From Eubacteriales bacterium (GTDB lineage Bacteria > Bacillota > Clostridia > Oscillospirales > CAG-382), in the NCBI GenBank assembly GCA_028705495.1, contig JAQWDK010000004.1, forward strand, positions 17,868 through 81,867: a stretch of 64,000 nucleotides of DNA, read 5' to 3'. Made by a program: the position numbers and the translations under genes. The notes beneath the pieces are model-generated. The model did not search any database, was not told the origin of the DNA, and saw nothing but the letters and a program-made list of their open reading frames with translations. Below, one piece after another: positions 172-57,555 of this stretch (positions are counted from its first letter, which is position 1; the number at the start of each line of letters is the position of its first letter).

Positions 172-2417
172 GAATTTCCTCTGATTATATTTTATCAACT
201 TTGTCCGACGCCGTTATTATCTCAGTTGGCGCAACAGGTGCGATTTTTGCAATATTAAGCGCATACAACTTAACCTATAACAGCGCGATTATAATAATTA
301 TAACGGTTACATCAGCGCTCATCTTCTCCGCTGTTTTTCATGCGCCAAAAAAAGTAAAGCGAATCGGTCTTGCGGTTTGTGGTATCGCTTTATTTGTCGG
401 CTATTATATGTACTCCACCGAAATAAACGGCGGATTCGTATATTTTTTTAATATCGTTTCAAGGCTTTTTCATAAGCTGTCAATCGACTTACCGACATTT
501 AACTTTCAACCATATCTGTTTTTCTTTCAAACGAGCCTTATAACAGCATTTTTCACCTATTTCTCAGTAATTTTCACCTTTGTTATAGCGTTTGCGCTTA
601 TAAGCATGAGGTCTACCTCTCTCTGCTTTCTGTTCTCGTTAATCTTTGTTTTCCCGTCATTTATTTTTATAAATATGCCGCCGGATATCGAGGCTATAAT
701 TCTTTATCTCGCGTTTATCTTGACGGTCTTCTTGACGAACAGTATAAGACTTGGTAGGAAAAGAACGAGCAGTGCGGTCGCCGTTCTTGTACCGATGCTT
801 ATTTTCCTTGTGCTTGTGAGGACTGTTTCGCCGGAAGAGACATATGTGAGATCTGATATCGGCGAAAAAATTTATGAGTTTTTTGCTAATAGACTTCCGC
901 TTAATCCGGAAACGAGCGAAAACCCTCTGCCCACAGTTTCGGGAGTTGATTACCAAGGTAATCCTCTTTTATCCGTTGACCTTCGGAACGCTGAACCGCC
1001 CGAAGGCACTGGAGTTGTTATGAGTGTAAAAACCAATTTGCGCGGGATACATTATCTACGTGGTATCACTTATGATACTTATAGCGACTCGAGCTGGACG
1101 ATAACCCCAAATGATCCGGATATCACCATTATACAATACAAAGTCGCTCTTTTACCCGGCACAAATCCTGAGTTTCCACTAAATCCTCATACTTATGCAA
1201 CTTATTCTGCGATGACGGCCGAGGATGAAAATGGTAATGTTGGATTACAGTCCACCGCACCAAGTATGTTTCACATCAGCTCCTTTAGTCGTGGTATTGC
1301 TTATATGCCGTATCTCTCGTTCTATAACGGCGATGACGGATTTAGCATAGAGAATGACTCTTATGTGATGCGAAACACTGCATATTCGGGATATACATTT
1401 ATGACCTATGACCCGATGCTGATTGGTAGTTTGATAGGCTCAGGCAACTCATATAGACCGGTAGACAACAGTGATGAAGAAACATTTAATCGCATCTATG
1501 GTGCCATAGTAAATGAAAGATACTATAATTTGCCACATGCGCAGTTTTATTTTTTCAGAAATCTTCTCAGTAAAGAATCGCTTGTCACCGATGGGGACGA
1601 TTATAAAACCATAACAGCAATAATCGAGTATGTCCAGAACAGTGCGACATACGATCTTAAAGCACCAAAAGCTCCTATAGGTGAGGACTTTATCGAATAC
1701 TTCCTTACTGAAAGCAAAAGTGGATTTTGCATTCACTTTGCTTCAGCTGCCACGTGCATGCTCCGCGCTGCAGGTTATCCCGCAAGATATGTCACGGGGT
1801 ATGTCGCGAATGTAAGCAGCGGTGAAGTTTGGACAGCCGTCACAGAGAAAGCAGCTCACGCCTGGGTCGAGGTTTACTTTGACGGCATCGGTTGGATTCC
1901 CTTTGATCCGACACCTGGAATACCGGGTGTTACAGCACCGCCGGTTGCCGAAACAAGCGAAGAGACAAGTCAAGTAGAATCGACAACATCAGTTCCAGAA
2001 ATCACTGAGTCTGAGACTTCATCTGAAAACAGCGAAAACGGTGAACCTTTTACAGTTGATTTAACAACCTTTGCGAAAGTTCTGCTCTTAAGCTTAAGTG
2101 TATTTGCAGTTTTAGCACTACCTTTTATCAGAAGGCGGTATATAAACACAAAGAGAATAAATGCATTTACATCGGAATCAACTAACAAAGCAGTAATATG
2201 TGCATGGCAGTATCTTGAAAGACTACTCGTTTATGAGGTGAAACCTCCGACGGAGGTTTATGAAACAGCGTTGAAAGCAGCGTTTAGCAATCATAAACTC
2301 AGCGATGATGAGAGAAAGTCAGTTGTAGAATTTGCTGTAAAATCAGCTGCTGAAGTTGATAGCTCTCTGCATTTCTTTAGAAAAATTGTTTTCAGATACC
2401 TAAAATGTCTTTATTAA
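168..2417 (+). CDS. Transglutaminase-like multi-pass membrane protein
   Basis: 749 aa. The N-terminus has many TM helices. Transglutaminase core with Cys/His/Asp context: SGFCIHFASAATCMLRAAGYPARYVTGY ... AAHAWVEVYFDGIGWIPFDPTPG. A Ser/Thr/Glu-rich linker and a C-terminal TM follow. Confidence 0.85.
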   Translation: MRISSDYILSTLSDAVIISVGATGAIFAILSAYNLTYNSAIIIIITVTSALIFSAVFHAPKKVKRIGLAVCGIALFVGYYMYSTEINGGFVYFFNIVSRLFHKLSIDLPTFNFQPYLFFFQTSLITAFFTYFSVIFTFVIAFALISMRSTSLCFLFSLIFVFPSFIFINMPPDIEAIILYLAFILTVFLTNSIRLGRKRTSSAVAVLVPMLIFLVLVRTVSPEETYVRSDIGEKIYEFFANRLPLNPETSENPLPTVSGVDYQGNPLLSVDLRNAEPPEGTGVVMSVKTNLRGIHYLRGITYDTYSDSSWTITPNDPDITIIQYKVALLPGTNPEFPLNPHTYATYSAMTAEDENGNVGLQSTAPSMFHISSFSRGIAYMPYLSFYNGDDGFSIENDSYVMRNTAYSGYTFMTYDPMLIGSLIGSGNSYRPVDNSDEETFNRIYGAIVNERYYNLPHAQFYFFRNLLSKESLVTDGDDYKTITAIIEYVQNSATYDLKAPKAPIGEDFIEYFLTESKSGFCIHFASAATCMLRAAGYPARYVTGYVANVSSGEVWTAVTEKAAHAWVEVYFDGIGWIPFDPTPGIPGVTAPPVAETSEETSQVESTTSVPEITESETSSENSENGEPFTVDLTTFAKVLLLSLSVFAVLALPFIRRRYINTKRINAFTSESTNKAVICAWQYLERLLVYEVKPPTEVYETALKAAFSNHKLSDDERKSVVEFAVKSAAEVDSSLHFFRKIVFRYLKCLY

Positions 2418-3051: not shown

Positions 3052-4302
3052 TTGAATCAAATGACAAGCTCCGCCGGAGCAAGCTCAGCATCGGTGTTAA
3101 CCGTTTCTCAGATAAACGGGATGATAAAAAAGCATGTTGAAAGCTCACCGTATCTAAAATCCGTCTATATTAAAGGCGAGATATCGAACCTTACGGTTCA
3201 CACAAGCGGACATTATTATTTTTCTCTCAAAGATTCTGGCTCAGTTTTGAAATGCATAATGTTCAGAGCGGCGGCAACAAAGCTTGTTTTCGCACCTGAA
3301 AACGGACTTAATGTAATTTGCCGCGGAAGAATATCTGTTTACGAACAGGGCGGTTATTATCAGCTTACTGTCGAGGCGATGAAGCCGGATGGTGTTGGAG
3401 AGCTGTATATTGCCTTTGAACAGCTGAAAAAGAAGCTGAATGCTGAAGGGCTTTTCGACAGAAAATATAAAAAGCCACTACCAAAAACGCCATATCGTGT
3501 CGGCATTGTAACCTCTCCGACCGGTGCTGCGGTGAGGGATATCATAAAAATCAGTCGCAGACGCTTTCCGCCTGCAAAACTTCTTCTCTATCCCGCTCTT
3601 GTTCAGGGTGAGGGAGCGGCCGCCAGCGTAATACGCGGTATTGAATATTTTAACCGTACCGATTCCGCGGATGTTGTTATAATTGGTAGGGGCGGAGGTT
3701 CAATAGAGGACTTATGGGCATTTAATGACGAAAATTTAGCGAGAGCAATTTTTCGTTCAGCGATCCCAATAGTATCGGCTGTCGGTCATGAAACAGACTT
3801 TACAATTTCCGATTTTGTTGCCGATGTTAGAGCCGCAACCCCTTCAGATGCAGCACAGCTCTGTTTACCTGAGATAGAAACATGTCATACAAGACTGACG
3901 AATGTAGCCCGGAGACTGTGCGACTCGCAGCTTTCTAACATATCCGAAAGGCGTTCTGCACTTGCGCTGCTTAAAAACAGCAAGCCTCTTACATCACCTT
4001 TTAACACTATTAATGACAGAAGAACGAAACTTGTAGATCTTGAGAGCAGTCTTTTCTCGGCGATACATTATTCTCTTGAAAGAAAAACAACTTCAGCCGA
4101 ACACATTGGTGAAAAACTCGCTCTGCTTGATCCGTTTTCGCCGCTCAAACGAGGATATGCTATTGCATTCGGGAAAGACGGTGCGGTTACAAGGGTCGGC
4201 TCTCTTGAAACAGGCGATGAGCTTAAGCTCAAATTCGCCGACGGTGAAGTAGATACAAGGATCACCGCTGTAAGAAAAGAAAGGCAAGAATCAAATGAGT
4301 AA
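3052..4302 (+). CDS. xseA: Exodeoxyribonuclease VII large subunit
   Basis: 416 aa. Motifs VGIVTSPTGAAVRDI and GRGGGSIEDLWAFNDE. The start is TTG 3052 or ATG 3061. An 8-nt overlap with xseB. Confidence 0.9.
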   Translation: MNQMTSSAGASSASVLTVSQINGMIKKHVESSPYLKSVYIKGEISNLTVHTSGHYYFSLKDSGSVLKCIMFRAAATKLVFAPENGLNVICRGRISVYEQGGYYQLTVEAMKPDGVGELYIAFEQLKKKLNAEGLFDRKYKKPLPKTPYRVGIVTSPTGAAVRDIIKISRRRFPPAKLLLYPALVQGEGAAASVIRGIEYFNRTDSADVVIIGRGGGSIEDLWAFNDENLARAIFRSAIPIVSAVGHETDFTISDFVADVRAATPSDAAQLCLPEIETCHTRLTNVARRLCDSQLSNISERRSALALLKNSKPLTSPFNTINDRRTKLVDLESSLFSAIHYSLERKTTSAEHIGEKLALLDPFSPLKRGYAIAFGKDGAVTRVGSLETGDELKLKFADGEVDTRITAVRKERQESNE

Positions 4303-4535: not shown

Positions 4536-5453
4536 TTGAATGATCATTATAAAAATCTTGAGGAGCGCATCAATACGCTTTCTGAAGTGACAAAAAAAGA
4601 AATAGAAATTGTATCCAGGTCAAAAATCGGTGAAACATATTATAAAACGCTAATTGACTCGATGAATTATACCTTAGACGCCGGCGGTAAGATGATACGC
4701 TCGTTTCTTGTGTATGAATTTTGCTCCGCTTCTGAGGAAAGCGACACCCATTCTGAAGGTTGTGAAAAATACGCAGCGGCTGTGGAAATGATGCATAGCT
4801 TTTCGCTCATACATGACGATTTGCCTTGTATGGATAATGCTTCTCTACGTCGTGGAAAGACGACTAACCACCTCGTTTTCGGTGAAGCGACAGCGCTTCT
4901 TGCGGGTGATGCACTCGCAATTCTTGCTCTTCACACCTGCGCTTCTAACAGACTCTACTCTCCGAAACAAAACTGCGAAGCCGTGGAATGCCTTAGCCAT
5001 TATGCAGGCAGGGATGGTATGATCGGTGGTCAACAGCTTGACCTTGAAGGCGAAAAAAGTCTTTTGTCGAAAGAACAGCTCGACCTTATGAACAGCATGA
5101 AAACTGGCTCTCTAATGGCAGCTTCTTGTGAGCTCGGCTGTATTGCAGGTATGGCAAGGACAGCGAGAAGAGTCGGTGCAAAGGGATATGGATTCCTTCT
5201 CGGACGTGCATTCCAAGTAACTGACGATATCCTCGATATAGAAAGTAGTCCAGAGCTTCTTGGAAAAGATATTGGAGCTGATAGCGAAAATAATAAATCA
5301 ACTTATGTCACACTACTCGGGCTTGAAGGAGCAAGAGAGTTTGCAAAAGAGCTGACTGAAAGCGCAAAGAAATGCCTTGAAGCATTTCCAGACAGCCAGT
5401 CGAAGAGAAACCTACTGCTATTAGCGGATTATTTACTTGAGCGAAAAAAATAG
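4536..5453 (+). CDS. ispA: Farnesyl/geranyl diphosphate synthase (polyprenyl synthetase family)
   Basis: 305 aa. First and second Asp-rich motifs: FSLIHDDLPCMDNASLRRGK and FQVTDDILD. Confidence 0.9.
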   Translation: MNDHYKNLEERINTLSEVTKKEIEIVSRSKIGETYYKTLIDSMNYTLDAGGKMIRSFLVYEFCSASEESDTHSEGCEKYAAAVEMMHSFSLIHDDLPCMDNASLRRGKTTNHLVFGEATALLAGDALAILALHTCASNRLYSPKQNCEAVECLSHYAGRDGMIGGQQLDLEGEKSLLSKEQLDLMNSMKTGSLMAASCELGCIAGMARTARRVGAKGYGFLLGRAFQVTDDILDIESSPELLGKDIGADSENNKSTYVTLLGLEGAREFAKELTESAKKCLEAFPDSQSKRNLLLLADYLLERKK

Positions 5454-47898: not shown

Positions 47899-47973
47899 GG
47901 CCTGTTAGTCAAGTGGTCAAGACGCCGCCCTCTCACGGCGGAGACAGGGGTTCGACTCCCCTACGGGTCACCA
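47899..47973 (+). tRNA. tRNA-Glu (anticodon CUC)
   Basis: GGCCTGT/ACGGGTC acceptor, D-arm GTCAAGTGGTCAAGAC, anticodon stem CCGCC/GGCGG with loop CTCTCAC, T-arm AGGGG-TTCGACT-CCCCT, encoded CCA. Close to the B. subtilis tRNA-Glu sequence as I recall it. Confidence 0.9.
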
Positions 47974-48016
47974 GCTGAGCTGGACTCAATTCTGCAATTG
48001 GGTTCAGCATTTTTTT
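47974..48016 (+). terminator. tRNA-Glu terminator (copy A of a duplicated 42-47-nt element)
   Basis: GCTGGACTCAATT-ctgc-AATTGGGTTCAGC (13 bp with G.U pairs) plus TTTTTTT. Confidence 0.8.
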
Positions 48017-48078: not shown

Positions 48079-48125
48079 AGCTGAAGCTGGACTCAATTTC
48101 ACAATTGGGTTCAGCATTATTTATT
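48079..48125 (+). repeat. Copy B of the terminator element (~90% identical to 47974-48016)
   Basis: GCTGAAGCTGGACTCAATTTCACAATTGGGTTCAGCATTATTTATTT. Preceded by TTTGACA, which resembles the tRNA 3' end TCACCA. Confidence 0.7.
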
Positions 48126-55977: not shown

Positions 55978-56199
55978 TTAGCATAACTCTGCCTCTTTAA
56001 GTGCGATTTGAAGCTTCGCGATAAAATCGGCTTTGCTGTGAGAGTATTGTGCCTCGCGGATGTTCGCACCGATTGATGTGCCGCTTCTGCCGATCTGGTT
56101 AGAAGTGATTGATTCACGCTTTTCTTTGAGTTGTTTGACGAAGTTGATTACTGAAACCGCAAAATTCATTGATTGAGTACGAAGTTTTGAATTAGACAT
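55978..56199 (-). pseudogene. Four-helix-bundle protein (23S rRNA IVS-protein family), copy 1, truncated/deleted
   Basis: MSNSKLRTQSMNFAVSVINFVKQLKEKRESITSNQIGRSGTSIGANIREAQYSHSKADFIAKLQIALKEAELC*. The family core (QIGRS..SI.ANI.E ... ADF...L.I.LKE) is present. It stops ~50 codons early. Beyond the stop the same frame reads ...RKRTIRFL*, matching the C-terminus of copy 2 (STIRFLL), which implies an internal deletion. Confidence 0.65.
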
Positions 56200-56223
56200 T
56201 GAGCGCACCTCACTTCCTAACAT

Positions 56224-56252
56224 ATTATACCATACACTTATGAGGTTTTCAA
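56224..56252 (-). promoter_or_regulatory. Sigma-A promoter of four-helix-bundle copy 1
   Basis: Minus strand: TTGAAA, 17-nt spacer, TGgTATAAT. The RBS GAGGTG follows. Confidence 0.65.
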
Positions 56253-56416
56253 TAGTGAAGTTGCGGCTTTGCCGCAGTGAAGTATTGTGGCTGCGCCGCA
56301 AAGTGAGGCTAAGTGTGCCACCCACGCCCGCAGGCACTTCACGAGGCGTAGCCTCGCTTCATGCGCGCAGCGCACTTCTCGTGCCAAAGGCACATCGCGT
56401 TACGATGTGCCTTTGC
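56253..56416. repeat. Mini-hairpin array 1 (7 short GC-rich hairpins with GTGAAG / CTTCAC linkers)
   Basis: TGCGGC-ttt-GCCGCA (56262-76), TTGTGGC-tgc-GCCGCAA (56285-301), GTGCC-n13-GGCAC (56315-37), CGAGGC-gta-GCCTCG (56342-56), TGCGC-gca-GCGCA (56362-74), GTGCC-aaa-GGCAC (56381-93), AAAGGCACATCG-cgtta-CGATGTGCCTTT (56386-414). Linkers are GTGAAGT on the left and CTTCA(C/T) on the right. Confidence 0.8.
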
Positions 56417-56422
56417 TGTGTT

Positions 56423-56467
56423 GTGACTACAATTTAGATGAAAAGCCGTGACACTACGATTTAGATG
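56423..56467. repeat. Tandem direct repeat GTGAC(AC)TAC(A/G)ATTTAGATG x2
   Basis: GTGACTACAATTTAGATG (56423-40), aaaagcc, GTGACACTACGATTTAGATG (56448-67). Confidence 0.7.
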
Positions 56468-56566
56468 CACGCTTTTTCTCGCGAGGGTACACGAACCCCT
56501 TGGCGATGATGGGTGTTGCGCTTGACCGTTGACCGACGGGGTATAAAGCCATGCTTGTAACGAAGT

Positions 56567-56806
56567 CTATGTATTATATACTGGCTTATACACCCAATGT
56601 GTATCTAAGTCTATTACATAATCCACCTTAACATGAGGATCAAAAGGAATCACTTCATAACCATAGCGCATACCAAAAGCGGAGGGAAACTCCTTTTCGC
56701 TAACAAGATTAAATATTTCTTTAGTTTTTTCTCGAAGTTCTGATTCTCCAATTCCTTTTCCATGCAGTAGTATATCGCCGTATACGGATTCTATGTAAAA
56801 TATCAC
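56567..56806 (-). CDS. 79-aa orphan protein coupled to four-helix-bundle copy 2
   Basis: The tracked ORF (56567-56887) overlaps the 3' end of copy 2 in another frame. GTG 56806 follows GGAAGGA and overlaps the copy-2 stop as GTGA. Product: MIFYIESVYGDILLHGKGIGESELREK... Confidence 0.45.
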   Translation of the reverse strand: MIFYIESVYGDILLHGKGIGESELREKTKEIFNLVSEKEFPSAFGMRYGYEVIPFDPHVKVDYVIDLDTHWVYKPVYNT

Positions 56807-57177
56807 TTTTTTCCTTCCGTCGCCGTATTGAGATTGTTTTTCGCTGTCGTAATAGACTTCACAAGTAAAAATCTTATTGTCGAGCACTTGCGGTCAAGTG
56901 TTTTATACCTCATTTCATCAATATACTCACTTTTCCAAAGCATTTCAAGCCATTTGCTCGTTTCGTTGGTCTCTTTCAATGAAATTTCAAGCTTTGCAAT
57001 AAAATCGGCGCGACCGTGAGCGTATTTACTTTCAGCAATATTTGCACAAATGCTTGTCGCGCTTCTGCCGATCTGATTTGATATTACATTTTCGTGATTT
57101 GCACGGAGTTCCTTTGTTAATTGTAAAACCTAAACAGATAATTCCATTGAAAGATCACCGAGCTTATCTTCTCTCAC
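56803..57177 (-). pseudogene. Four-helix-bundle protein (23S rRNA IVS-protein family), copy 2, full length but with an in-frame TAG
   Basis: GTG 57177 follows AAAGGTGGTGG. VREDKLGDLSMELSV*VLQLTKELRANHENVISNQIGRSATSICANIAESKYAHGRADFIAKLEISLKETNETSKWLEMLWKSEYIDEMRYKTLDRKCSTIRFLLVKSITTAKNN.... The TAG at 57130-57132 aligns with Ser in copy 1. Confidence 0.65.
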
Positions 57178-57201: not shown

Positions 57202-57230
57202 ATTATATCATAATTTCAACTAAAAACCAA
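57202..57230 (-). promoter_or_regulatory. Sigma-A promoter of four-helix-bundle copy 2
   Basis: Minus strand: TTGGTT, 17-nt spacer, TGaTATAAT. Confidence 0.55.
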
Positions 57231-57446
57231 CTGCATTTCAGCGCACAAACTAACGGCTTCATTCCGTTTGCGCGAAGCGCAACATCATTGGGCGAAAACC
57301 CACATCATTTGCCGAAGGCAACTTCATTTACGGCAAAGCCGTAACATCGTTCATTTGTGCCGCGCGGGGCGGCAATGAAGTTGAGCTAACGCTCAAATGA
57401 TGTTGCGCGCGTTGCACGCAAATGATGTTGTGCCTACGGACACAAA
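57231..57446. repeat. Mini-hairpin array 2 (~9 short GC-rich TTG..CAA hairpins with CATCATT / AATGATG linkers)
   Basis: TTGCGC-gaa-GCGCAA (57268-82), TGGG-cgaaaa-CCCA (57289-302), TTGCC-gaa-GGCAA (57309-21), TTACGGC-aaa-GCCGTAA (57328-44), TTGtGCCGC-gcggg-GCGGCAA (57355-75), TTGAGC-taac-GCTCAA (57381-96), TTGCG-n9-CGCAA (57403-21), TTGTGCC-tac-GGaCACAA (57428-45). Linker polarity flips near 57365. Confidence 0.8.
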
Positions 57447-57479
57447 TGAAAAATCCGAAAGCGAGAGCTTTCGGATTTT
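57447..57479 (-). terminator. Terminator of tRNA-Gln
   Basis: Minus strand: AAAAATCCGAAAGC-tctc-GCTTTCGGATTTTT. Confidence 0.85.
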
Positions 57480-57555
57480 TGGCAGGGGTGGATGGACTCG
57501 AACCATCGGAATGCAAGAGTCAAAGTCTTGTGCCTTACCACTTGGCTACACCCCT
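57480..57555 (-). tRNA. tRNA-Gln (anticodon UUG)
   Basis: Minus strand: AGGGGTG TA GCCAAGTGGTAAGGC A CAAGA-CTTTGAC-TCTTG ... GATGG-TTCGAGT-CCATC CACCCCT G CCA. Confidence 0.9.

Follow-up and report, generated by a model that had tools for sequence, protein, structure and literature searches.

What is a chain of short GC-rich hairpins, joined by a recurring seven-letter word, doing directly in front of a gene promoter? The question is raised by array A, at 56253..56416 on the minus strand of the window, i.e. the whole stretch of 64,000 nucleotides that was analysed. A first-pass annotation had described it as the second of two such chains, of opposite polarity, and had suggested that it is a maintained element.

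The array in the window

Array A is built of hairpins and 7-nt words, arranged in two parts, and is taken here in the direction in which the gene downstream of it runs. Its parts are the following.

56253..56416, minus strand: array A
56338..56393, minus strand: gene-distal half, with the words GAGAAG, ATGAAG and GTGAAGT; the Gut-1-like part
56310..56337, minus strand: conserved centre, GTGCC-TGCGGGCGTGGGT-GGCACACTTA
56253..56309, minus strand: gene-proximal half, with the words CCTCAC, ACTTCAC and ACTTCAC
56262-56276: hairpin TGCGGC-ttt-GCCGCA
56285-56301: hairpin TTGTGGC-tgc-GCCGCAA, with one T.G pair
56315-56337: centre hairpin GTGCC..GGCAC, with a 13-nt loop
56342-56356: hairpin CGAGGC-gta-GCCTCG
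56362-56374: hairpin TGCGC-gca-GCGCA
56381-56393: hairpin GTGCC-aaa-GGCAC
56385..56415: perfect 13-bp hairpin, arms 56385-56397 and 56403-56415

All the hairpins listed in the first-pass annotation are present, and the array holds six short GC-rich hairpins in addition to the long terminal one, to which 12 bp had been assigned and which in fact has 13. Five of the mini-hairpins are perfect or near-perfect, with stems of 5-7 bp and loops of 3 nt. The linkers had been described as GTGAAGT left of the centre and its complement to the right, and this is what is found: GTGAAGT lies at 56255 and 56277 of the plus strand and occupies 56336-56342 of the minus strand. Past the centre the plus strand reads ACTTCAC (56336-56342), followed by the linkers CTTCA and CTTCT. 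The words of the gene-distal half separate the hairpins at 56393-56381, 56374-56362 and 56356-56342; the hairpins of the gene-proximal half lie at 56301-56285 and 56276-56262.

Could this be a set of chance palindromes, or an ordinary cluster of terminators in a GC-rich patch? The local GC of array A is 0.59-0.63, compared with 0.41 over the window, and a terminator scan calls the 13-bp hairpin terminator-like; the only other hairpin called here is 57449-57480. However, an intrinsic terminator cluster has a T-run behind each hairpin, and the mini-hairpins of array A have words after them instead. A density of four or more perfect GC-rich hairpins in 200 nt is reached at two places of the 64 kb, 56.15-56.5 kb and 57.2-57.45 kb, and nowhere else. 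The folding energy of array A has a z of -4.6 on the minus and -4.1 on the plus strand, and none of 200 shuffles folds as well. Chains of at least three hairpins with linkers of 3-12 nt number 116 in related loci and the window, and 5 after local shuffling. Together with the homologous arrays in more than 60 genomes and their covariation (see below), these shuffle controls refute chance palindromes, and we consider the probability of either explanation to be negligible.

Two units behind a tRNA gene

The neighbourhood of array A, also on the minus strand, contains the following features, where 4HB stands for a four-helix-bundle gene of family PF05635.

57480..57555, minus strand: tRNA-Gln (UUG) gene with encoded CCA, the docking point of the tandem units
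57449..57480, minus strand: terminator at the start of unit 1, with A-run, 14-bp stem and T-run, directly after tRNA-Gln
57256..57448, minus strand: array B, with the architecture of array A and the opposite word polarity
57202..57230, minus strand: unit 1 promoter, TTGGTT-17-TATAAT, matched in position in three related loci (L001, L002, L010)
56803..57177, minus strand: unit 1 4HB gene (B family), PF05635 at E 9e-25, with an in-frame TAG at 57132-57130
56567..56806, minus strand: unit 1 cargo ORF of 79 aa, whose GTG start overlaps the 4HB stop as GTGA
56417..56566, minus strand: spacer from the unit 1 cargo to array A, with direct repeats at 56426-56440 and 56453-56467
56224..56252, minus strand: unit 2 promoter, TTGAAA-17-TATAAT, with an extended -10 (TG before the -10)
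55978..56200, minus strand: truncated 4HB gene of unit 2, PF05635 at E 2e-15, with 73 of about 117 codons

Read along the minus strand, the order is tRNA-Gln, unit 1 (B type), a spacer that is not recognisable and unit 2 (A type). The window contains two decayed units in tandem behind tRNA-Gln, and array A belongs to the second of them.

The placement of array A directly upstream of the -35 of a four-helix-bundle gene, as claimed in the first pass, is correct. Its final word ends directly 5' of the -35 of the near-consensus promoter at 56252-56224, which is conserved across related loci in the alignment and is followed by a ribosome-binding site and the PF05635 gene. In this gene the homology to intact genes ends at KEA, and the DNA beyond is AT-rich and unrelated. 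The 73-aa product is on record from a Eubacteriales MAG and is identical to one database protein (P0121), while its relatives have 115-120 aa. The two 4HB genes of the window score 57.2 and 87.4 bits against a Pfam cut-off of 33.8, and PDB entry 2RLD matches, at E 3e-33, a close homologue (P0122) that is 93% identical to the window gene. Neither copy has an intact frame of 115-125 codons, one being truncated at codon 73 and the other interrupted by the TAG; the homologues are intact. The interrupted gene of unit 1 is probably a pseudogene, and its cargo ORF has no match to a Pfam family.

Array B carries ACATCATT in its tRNA-side half and AATGATGT or AATGAAGT in its gene-side half, so that the polarity is indeed opposite in the two arrays. 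Its segments a and a'', which correspond to the closing helix described below, are at 57448-57438 and 57361-57352, and homologues of it are present in loci of other genomes. The intrinsic terminator in front of it looks bidirectional.

In the spacer between the two units (56417..56566) neither the box of about 60 nt nor the terminator of intact tandem units is recognisable, and the HMM of this box has no match anywhere in the window. Neither ARAGORN nor Rfam finds a tRNA remnant 5' of array A. The tRNA-Glu gene of the window has no array behind it.

Homologous arrays are conserved and covary

Homologous loci were drawn from MAG and metagenome assemblies. The two 4HB proteins of the window have 1,300 and more than 7,800 matches in MAGs and metagenomes of gut Clostridia; each of the two has over a thousand relatives that are 85-97% identical (84-100% among the best matches listed), and many sit on short contigs. 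For the A-family gene 80 genomic loci were fetched, and for the B-family gene 10 places, which represent three distinct loci.

In all regions read, the layout upstream of the gene is a tRNA with CCA, an intrinsic terminator, the array start AACTAAGTGTGCC, 3-4 hairpins with GTGAAG linkers, the centre ..GGCACACTTAACTTCAC, 3 hairpins with CTTCAC linkers, the -35 and -10 elements and a ribosome-binding site, followed by the 4HB gene. The A-type array can be matched position by position 5' of intact 4HB genes in more than 60 genomes of gut Clostridia. The first-pass annotation had named the absence of arrays at such intact genes as the observation that would count against a maintained element; the intact homologues do carry arrays, and the number of genomes, together with the strong covariation of the hairpins, upholds the maintained element over random palindromes.

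From its first GTGCC hairpin on, array A aligns column by column with 62 homologous arrays. In the resulting alignment of 63 sequences (window included) invariance is 90% or more in the words, at the start and in the centre, and the stems vary. The 31 pairs of the local hairpins are nevertheless paired in 93.9% of cases, as against 27-45% with slid partners, and two-sided changes are seen in 25 of the 31 stem pairs (378 cells), which none of 500 shuffles reaches. A long-range helix is present as well: in intact copies the array's first 10 nt (a) have their complement in the 3' part of the centre (a''), and in the 63 arrays this helix a/a'' is 98.6% paired, with 3 covarying pairs. The same 5' segment also makes the first local hairpin, and that hairpin and the helix are mutually exclusive; the minimum-energy fold of one intact array favours the a/a'' helix plus local hairpins. 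A ladder fold, in which left words pair with right words, was rejected: the pairs that RNAalifold proposes are invariant, and the variable partner words mismatch (GATAAG vs CTTCAC, and likewise in the B type).

Among 216 distinct hairpins there are 1138 Watson-Crick pairs (96.7%), 23 G:T, 10 A:C and 6 others; on the gene-sense strand G:T exceeds A:C (23 vs 10, p 0.035). The loop-closing pair is nearly always C:G, and the loops read C-TNC-G on the GTGAAGT strand and C-GNA-G or C-AAA-G on the ACTTCAC strand. As DNA, GCGNAGC is an extraordinarily stable mini-hairpin (PMC13037366).

When array A is compared with the intact homologues, its gene-proximal half has one hairpin unit fewer. At the other end, the 13-bp hairpin is an inverted duplication of CGATGTGCCTTTG. 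Since it occupies the place that the tRNA, the terminator and the array start (AACTAAGT) have in intact homologues, it is a local rearrangement. The decayed window copy of the array has also begun to gather mismatches.

The two arrays of the window had been taken for paralogous modules whose duplication might be dated. They belong instead to two distinct, widely distributed families, each with a 4HB clade to itself: in family A the word is GTGAAGT, in family B ATGATGT or ATGAAGT. A local tandem duplication was rejected, as either module is much more similar to its family members elsewhere than to its neighbour in the window. Judged by their words, the array types seen are GTGAAGT; ATGATGT or ATGAAGT; GATGATAT; GATGAAAT or GGTGAAAT; and ATGAATT. 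Both polarities are found for one word family, in types B and F and in types C and D. The linkers are conserved, whereas the palindromes of one array differ from each other and from those of other arrays. There are also variants without hairpins, in which words of the same kind form contiguous heptads in the same context (L068, L148, L033).

A functionless, minisatellite-like by-product, generated by slippage and unequal exchange between words and carried along with the units, would explain that one locus (L026) has three tandem array copies behind tRNA-Pro, and that hairpin units shift position and are gained or lost as a whole, as in the window copy. However, neutral repeats would build up mismatches, and what is kept across many families of Clostridia, in several word types, is the architecture, the near-invariant words and the Watson-Crick-perfect stems. 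We find this explanation quite improbable.

The array is the front part of a gene cassette

A kind of small gene cassette abounds in gut Clostridia (Oscillospiraceae, Acutalibacteraceae, Ruminococcus and others), and the array forms its structured front part. An intact unit starts with an intrinsic terminator, the two-part array, in which the orientation of the 7-nt word flips at the conserved centre, and a sigma-A promoter. It continues with a 4HB gene of PF05635, which is usually present, and a variable cargo gene, and closes with a box of about 60 nt ending in CTCTTTCGCA. A unit begins with the base next to the CCA of a tRNA gene, or next to the box of the unit in front of it, and has a terminator behind it.

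A co-oriented tRNA gene, with 28 anticodons represented, is found 5' of 66 of the 83 4HB loci, its end lying about 230-470 nt and mostly about 250-290 nt 5' of the 4HB start. Among the 17 loci without a tRNA, 11 are cut by contig ends. Of the other tRNA gene ends on the same contigs, about 4 of 12 carry an array.

The cargo gene is translationally coupled to the 4HB gene: the last codons of the latter (..SINTAKEN.K) include a ribosome-binding site, AAGGAG, and the two genes overlap as ATGA or TAATG. The homology between loci ends exactly at this overlap of 4HB and cargo. As cargo, small enzymes of unrelated kinds are encoded: GNAT, NUDIX, FMN reductase, nucleotidyltransferase, MazG, kinase-like ATPase, EEP nuclease, DUF4279 and pyrophosphatase. 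In total 52 boxes were found, each with a terminator directly 3' of it that stands alone or starts another unit, and a unit following a box usually has a different word type.

Not all units follow the full scheme. One locus (L020) contains an apparently non-coding unit at 4930-5190, whose array lies between two terminators. L083, L085, L070 and the minus-strand copy of L075 have the array followed by the ribosome-binding site with no promoter in between, and there the array must be transcribed.

The loci above were reached through the 4HB gene. An array-anchored sample was obtained by scanning metagenomes with a 17-mer of the centre, which matched 94 stretches. The counts are small: 25 of the 80 loci listed are arrays, and the others are mostly chance matches. 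Of the 18 arrays with enough upstream sequence 12 follow a tRNA, and among the 22 with enough downstream sequence there are 9 full and 2 partial 4HB genes; the arrays without a 4HB gene have a promoter and another gene instead. The recurrence of arrays 5' of 4HB genes, which the first-pass annotation had proposed, holds in more than 60 genomes, but the gene is optional. An obligatory link was rejected, as in this array-anchored sample about half of the A-type arrays have no 4HB gene, which leaves terminator, array and promoter as the constant core. In the searchable literature no description of such a cassette was found.

The unit appears to move as a block

In three different MAG species (L014, L018, L023) a block of 1,107 bp, which begins with the base next to CCA and ends where the box ends, is common to all with 97-98% identity. 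The gene in front of the block is a tRNA for Ala in one case, a tRNA for Leu in another and a tRNA-like gene ending in CCA in the third; the flanks are not related to each other, and the terminator behind the block differs among the three. Other pairs of loci have nearly the same unit behind tRNAs for Ser and Asp, Val and Ala, or Val and Leu. In the opposite case, one tRNA-Ser locus has different cargo in two genomes (L020 and L042). Further, identical copies of terminator plus array flank the 4HB gene and cargo on both sides in L071, and in L076 a second such copy comes after them. Since the same unit is found behind different tRNAs in different genomes, it is transferable as a block and appears to move.

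No recombinase or transposase was found inside any unit, and neither an empty site nor a circular junction was seen. Carriage by phages or plasmids was rejected as well: in plasmid and phage collections only weak matches to the coding part of the module were found, the 9 viral matches of the A-centre 17-mer all lie in coding DNA and are due to chance, and the B centre has no viral matches.

Relation to Gut-1

Array A matches the Rfam family Gut-1 (RF01706) at 34.1 bits (E 6e-4; 56331-56402, minus strand), and array B matches it weakly, at 22 bits; the gathering threshold of Gut-1 is 50 bits, so both window arrays are below it. The cmscan alignment of array A nevertheless spans all 77 positions of the model, and sister arrays with GATGATAT or GATGAAAT words, at equivalent cassette positions behind the cargo gene in related loci, exceed the threshold with 66.1, 58.3 and 53.7 bits. 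The other sub-threshold Rfam matches nearby (ohsC, NrrF, CrcZ, mir-875, sR44) were discarded as noise.

Gut-1 and the arrays have in common tandem short GC-rich hairpins, C-UUC-G loops, a purine-rich 7-nt linker (consensus GUGAAAU) and gut bacteria as their source. Array A has at least three consecutive hairpins of this kind with a 7-nt linker resembling GUGAAAU, and the hairpin covariation on which Gut-1 is based is also present in A-type arrays. In contrast, the words of the window arrays are different (GTGAAGT and ATGATGT), as the scores of 34 and 22 bits reflect. On this comparison array A is a diverged member of the Gut-1 element family.

The Rfam model consists of three hairpins of one half and describes just half of the real element: in the original Gut-1 alignment the other half, its words inverted, can be seen in the flanks, and one of the cases also has a tRNA and a terminator upstream. 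The mirrored two-part layout, the closing helix, the terminator-promoter context and the link to tRNA and cassette are undescribed for Gut-1, which was reported simply as occurring in gut metagenomes (PMC2864571).

Weinberg et al. (2010) rated Gut-1 an RNA on the basis of covariation (PMC2864571), and a structured RNA has to be considered for the arrays too. It would be transcribed by read-through from the tRNA or an upstream gene, similar to a 3' external transcribed spacer, and form a domain closed by the a/a'' helix. As a stable RNA it might bind a protein or a small RNA by its single-stranded words, like a sponge, or it might be a barrier to processing and decay between the tRNA and the cassette mRNA. 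The covariation of the local hairpins and of a long-range helix over 100 nt is what such an RNA would show, as is the excess of G:T over A:C on the sense strand. Moreover, the units without a promoter between array and ribosome-binding site have the array in their transcript, and the array of L020 lies between two terminators.

However, most arrays are located 5' of the promoter of their own unit and 3' of a strong terminator, and the orientation of the words relative to transcription is not conserved, both polarities being found. The two halves of an RNA would carry complementary words, yet these partners do not covary (GATAAG faces a constant CTTCAC) and are mismatched in the B type. G:U makes up just about 2% of the pairs, and the loops are triloops and not the stable tetraloops of RNA. 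We regard the RNA, in either role, as a serious rival to the platform described next, though somewhat less likely than it. The G:T excess and the promoter-less units count against the platform and suit an RNA role just as well.

A proposed folded single-stranded platform

We are much more confident of the identity and context of the array than of its mechanism. The full reading that we favour, although we give it somewhat less than an even chance, is that the array is the front end of the cassette and at the same time a cis-acting platform of folded single strand. The array would act as a folded single-stranded nucleic acid, for which the hairpins would be kept as nearly perfect Watson-Crick palindromes with 3-nt loops closed by C:G. 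The folded-out hairpins would bring the conserved words side by side in a run of heptads, an arrangement that is seen directly in the hairpin-free variants. Given the mirrored halves and the occurrence of both polarities, either strand would offer an equal platform; the two polarities also argue against a reading in one transcript direction.

The platform would serve as the recognition site of the cassette for a trans-acting factor, putatively a recombination or insertion machinery, of which the 4HB protein might be a partner. The 4HB gene is, however, missing in about half of the A-type units. In a side role, array and terminator might also insulate the promoter of the cassette from the strong tRNA gene upstream. 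By analogy, the logic of the array resembles that of a folded integron attC site. A palindrome of 5-7 bp does not readily extrude from duplex DNA, so a DNA platform must assume that the single strand comes from replication or from read-through RNA.

A different possibility is that the words are operators in duplex DNA, which bind a transcription factor at the downstream promoter and possibly autoregulate the 4HB gene, in a manner similar to the heptads bound by the omega protein of plasmid pSM19035. The words are the most conserved part of the array, and the last of them ends 5-8 nt 5' of the -35 in nearly all units. Each 4HB clade seen has its own word (GTGAAGT, ATGATGT, GTGAAAT, ATGAATT), although such a match is expected from simple co-inheritance, and contiguous heptads without hairpins exist in the same context. 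But operators leave unexplained why the palindromic spacers show compensatory changes and why there is an a/a'' helix. The distance from word to word varies between 20 and 25 nt, so the words have no common helical phase in duplex DNA, and some arrays (L020, L075) have no promoter after them. Avd, to which the 4HB protein is related, binds nucleic acids non-specifically, and DNA binding by 4HB is an analogy with Avd only. Operators are in our view unlikely.

Returning to the folded single strand, a more specific proposal, which we make tentatively, is that the arrays, with the leading terminator and the trailing box, are folded single-strand attachment sites of an undescribed cassette system. 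Small self-expressing units would then enter at a precise point, after the CCA end of a tRNA gene and ahead of its terminator, line up head to tail and exchange their cargo, by means of a machinery acting in trans and possibly with the help of the Avd-like 4HB protein.

Comparison with known systems

The units resemble integron cassettes in that they are small, mostly have one gene of unrelated cargo and are stacked head to tail at a fixed docking point. Similar to attC, which acts as folded single-stranded DNA, the array is a cis site that varies in sequence and is constant in structure. However, no integrase or attI is seen with these units, and their borders read ..CCA|(C)GAAAA.. and ..TTCGCA|A-run, not GTTRRRY. 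The core sites of integron cassettes lie within an imperfect palindrome at the cassette's 3' end, whereas the units have their structured site, made of many hairpins, at the 5' end; further, the units carry their own terminator and promoter, and they dock where a tRNA gene ends.

REP/BIME elements of enterobacteria and BOX elements of pneumococci are also mosaic, modular and hairpin-rich, with units in both orientations and in variable numbers. Like them, the arrays lie outside genes, just after genes or terminators. In REP/BIME, however, the conserved repeat is the palindrome, and here it is the linkers while the palindromes differ; no RAYT-type transposase is known here, and the arrays are tied to a promoter and to cassette ends.

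With elements of the IS200/IS605 type and their non-autonomous derivatives the units may share insertion just behind a short fixed sequence, which in their case is CCA or GCA, the lack of inverted terminal repeats and of a visible target duplication, a terminal hairpin and, possibly, the use of single-stranded DNA. In contrast to them, no TnpA is identified, and only the left end has a hairpin, the right end (the box) being without a clear one. The many hairpins and the words have no counterpart there.

The S23p ORF of intervening sequences in 23S rRNA and Avd of diversity-generating retroelements are PF05635 proteins too, encoded next to or inside a stable-RNA gene. Here, in contrast, the 4HB gene is found behind tRNA genes, has its own promoter, leads the cargo and has no reverse transcriptase nearby.

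The omega protein of pSM19035 recognises heptads that are contiguous in duplex DNA, 5' of promoters, in direct and inverted orientation. The arrays similarly have 7-nt words, direct and inverted, just 5' of promoters, and some array types use ATATCAC; but here the words are split by obligatory hairpins, and no omega-like protein is present.

Implications

What is new here is the cassette context of the array; the array itself is a relative of the known Gut-1 motif. The first-pass picture was right about the element, and missed the tRNA and terminator, the relation to Gut-1 and the cassette structure. To our knowledge Gut-1 has been an orphan since 2010, known just from gut metagenomes and without host, context or function. 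Gut-1 and its diverged relatives are now placed in named Clostridia, the real element is about twice the size of the model and mirror-symmetric, and the family has a fixed genomic grammar: tRNA or box, terminator, array, promoter, 4HB, cargo and box. For annotation it matters that the arrays break assemblies, many homologues being found at contig ends, and they should be masked or modelled.

The 4HB proteins of PF05635 are, as far as we know, among the commonest uncharacterised small proteins of bacteria, and known to us only as Avd in retroelements and as ORFs in the intervening sequences of 23S rRNA. Their place as an optional leader gene of transferable units behind tRNA genes gives a setting in which their function can be tested.

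If mobility of the cassettes is borne out, the gut microbiome would have a new way of shuffling genes, and the units would also be a natural, compact part consisting of terminator, insulator, promoter and leader. Should the arrays indeed be attachment sites, gut Clostridia would have an integron-like system, and Gut-1 would be given a function.

Boundaries of the unit

The unit, or cassette, sits behind the CCA end of a tRNA gene and runs in the order terminator, array (a two-part chain of GC-rich mini-hairpins and 7-nt words), promoter, usually a PF05635 four-helix-bundle (4HB) gene, cargo gene and box. The box is a conserved stretch of about 60 nt on the 3' side of the cargo gene, found at 52 places in the loci fetched from related gut Clostridia, for instance at:

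L014, 4756-4813: box
L071, 4707-4764: box

It consists of a pair of similar half-units, its end reads ..CCGTTT..CTCTTTCGCA, and on the right the shared block ends with it. At all 52 places a terminator follows directly, and before the next unit the box occupies the same position as the tRNA end.

In related genomes a common core, ..CTTTTGTCTACC..GACAAAAG.., recurs in the terminators 3' of tRNA genes, both with and without an array behind them. Many unit terminators carry this core, as does the following:

L082, about 1700-1760, minus strand: terminator with the shared core

The outer stem of these terminators shows compensatory changes, and they look like a separate terminator family. In the window, the stretch 47899-48010 holds tRNA-Glu (CUC) followed by an ordinary terminator, and neither array nor cassette is found behind it. 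The 5' arm and loop of this terminator (about 25 nt, GCTGGACTCAATT..CAATTGGGTTCAGCAT) occur a second time at about 48085-48118.

Array A (word GTGAAGT, window 56253-56416) is separated from the cargo of unit 1 by a spacer (56417-56566, minus strand). Here a direct repeat, ACTACAATTTAGATG / ACTACGATTTAGATG, lies at 56426-56440 and 56453-56467, 27 nt apart, where box and terminator would be expected. Adjoining it is a weak T-arm-like motif, GGGGTTCGTGTACCC (minus strand), within 56480-56540; no tRNA was called in that interval.

At L014 a direct repeat of about 75 nt (3616-3690 and 4838-4920) brackets a CCA-ending tRNA-like gene together with the unit. The repeat holds an apparent reversed T-arm (GGACTCGAACC). 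ARAGORN made no call for the tRNA-like gene (3640-3730).

Variation among arrays

Some arrays lack hairpins and are found in the same setting, between terminator and promoter:

L068, 4210-4640, minus strand: hairpin-less array
L148 and L033, after their boxes: hairpin-less arrays

They are built of contiguous heptads (CTCTTCA CTCTTCA CTTTTCA ...), a spacer and inverted heptads (AGTAATA GTGAATA ...). The array of L075 (5580-5760, minus strand; words CATGAATTG / AATTCATG) lies after the stop codon of the upstream gene and ahead of the 4HB ribosome-binding site. Since it has neither terminator nor promoter, it must belong to an mRNA.

Between tRNA-Pro and the 4HB gene, L026 (3320-3990) contains three tandem copies of a segment comprising the terminator 3' half, array A and the -35 region, which shows that array duplication occurs through unequal exchange.

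Just one further place in the window, 32598-32656, has three short GC-rich hairpins in a chain; its linkers show no conservation, and the chain may be due to chance.

Junction with the cargo gene

In all loci with array A's 4HB family, the last 30 nt of the 4HB reading frame end in ..AAGGAGAAnnnnAAATGA (e.g. L011, 4320-4351). The ribosome-binding site and the start codon for the next gene, whichever gene that is, are thus encoded within the 4HB frame, and consequently each cargo protein begins with methionine followed by a codon whose first base is A.
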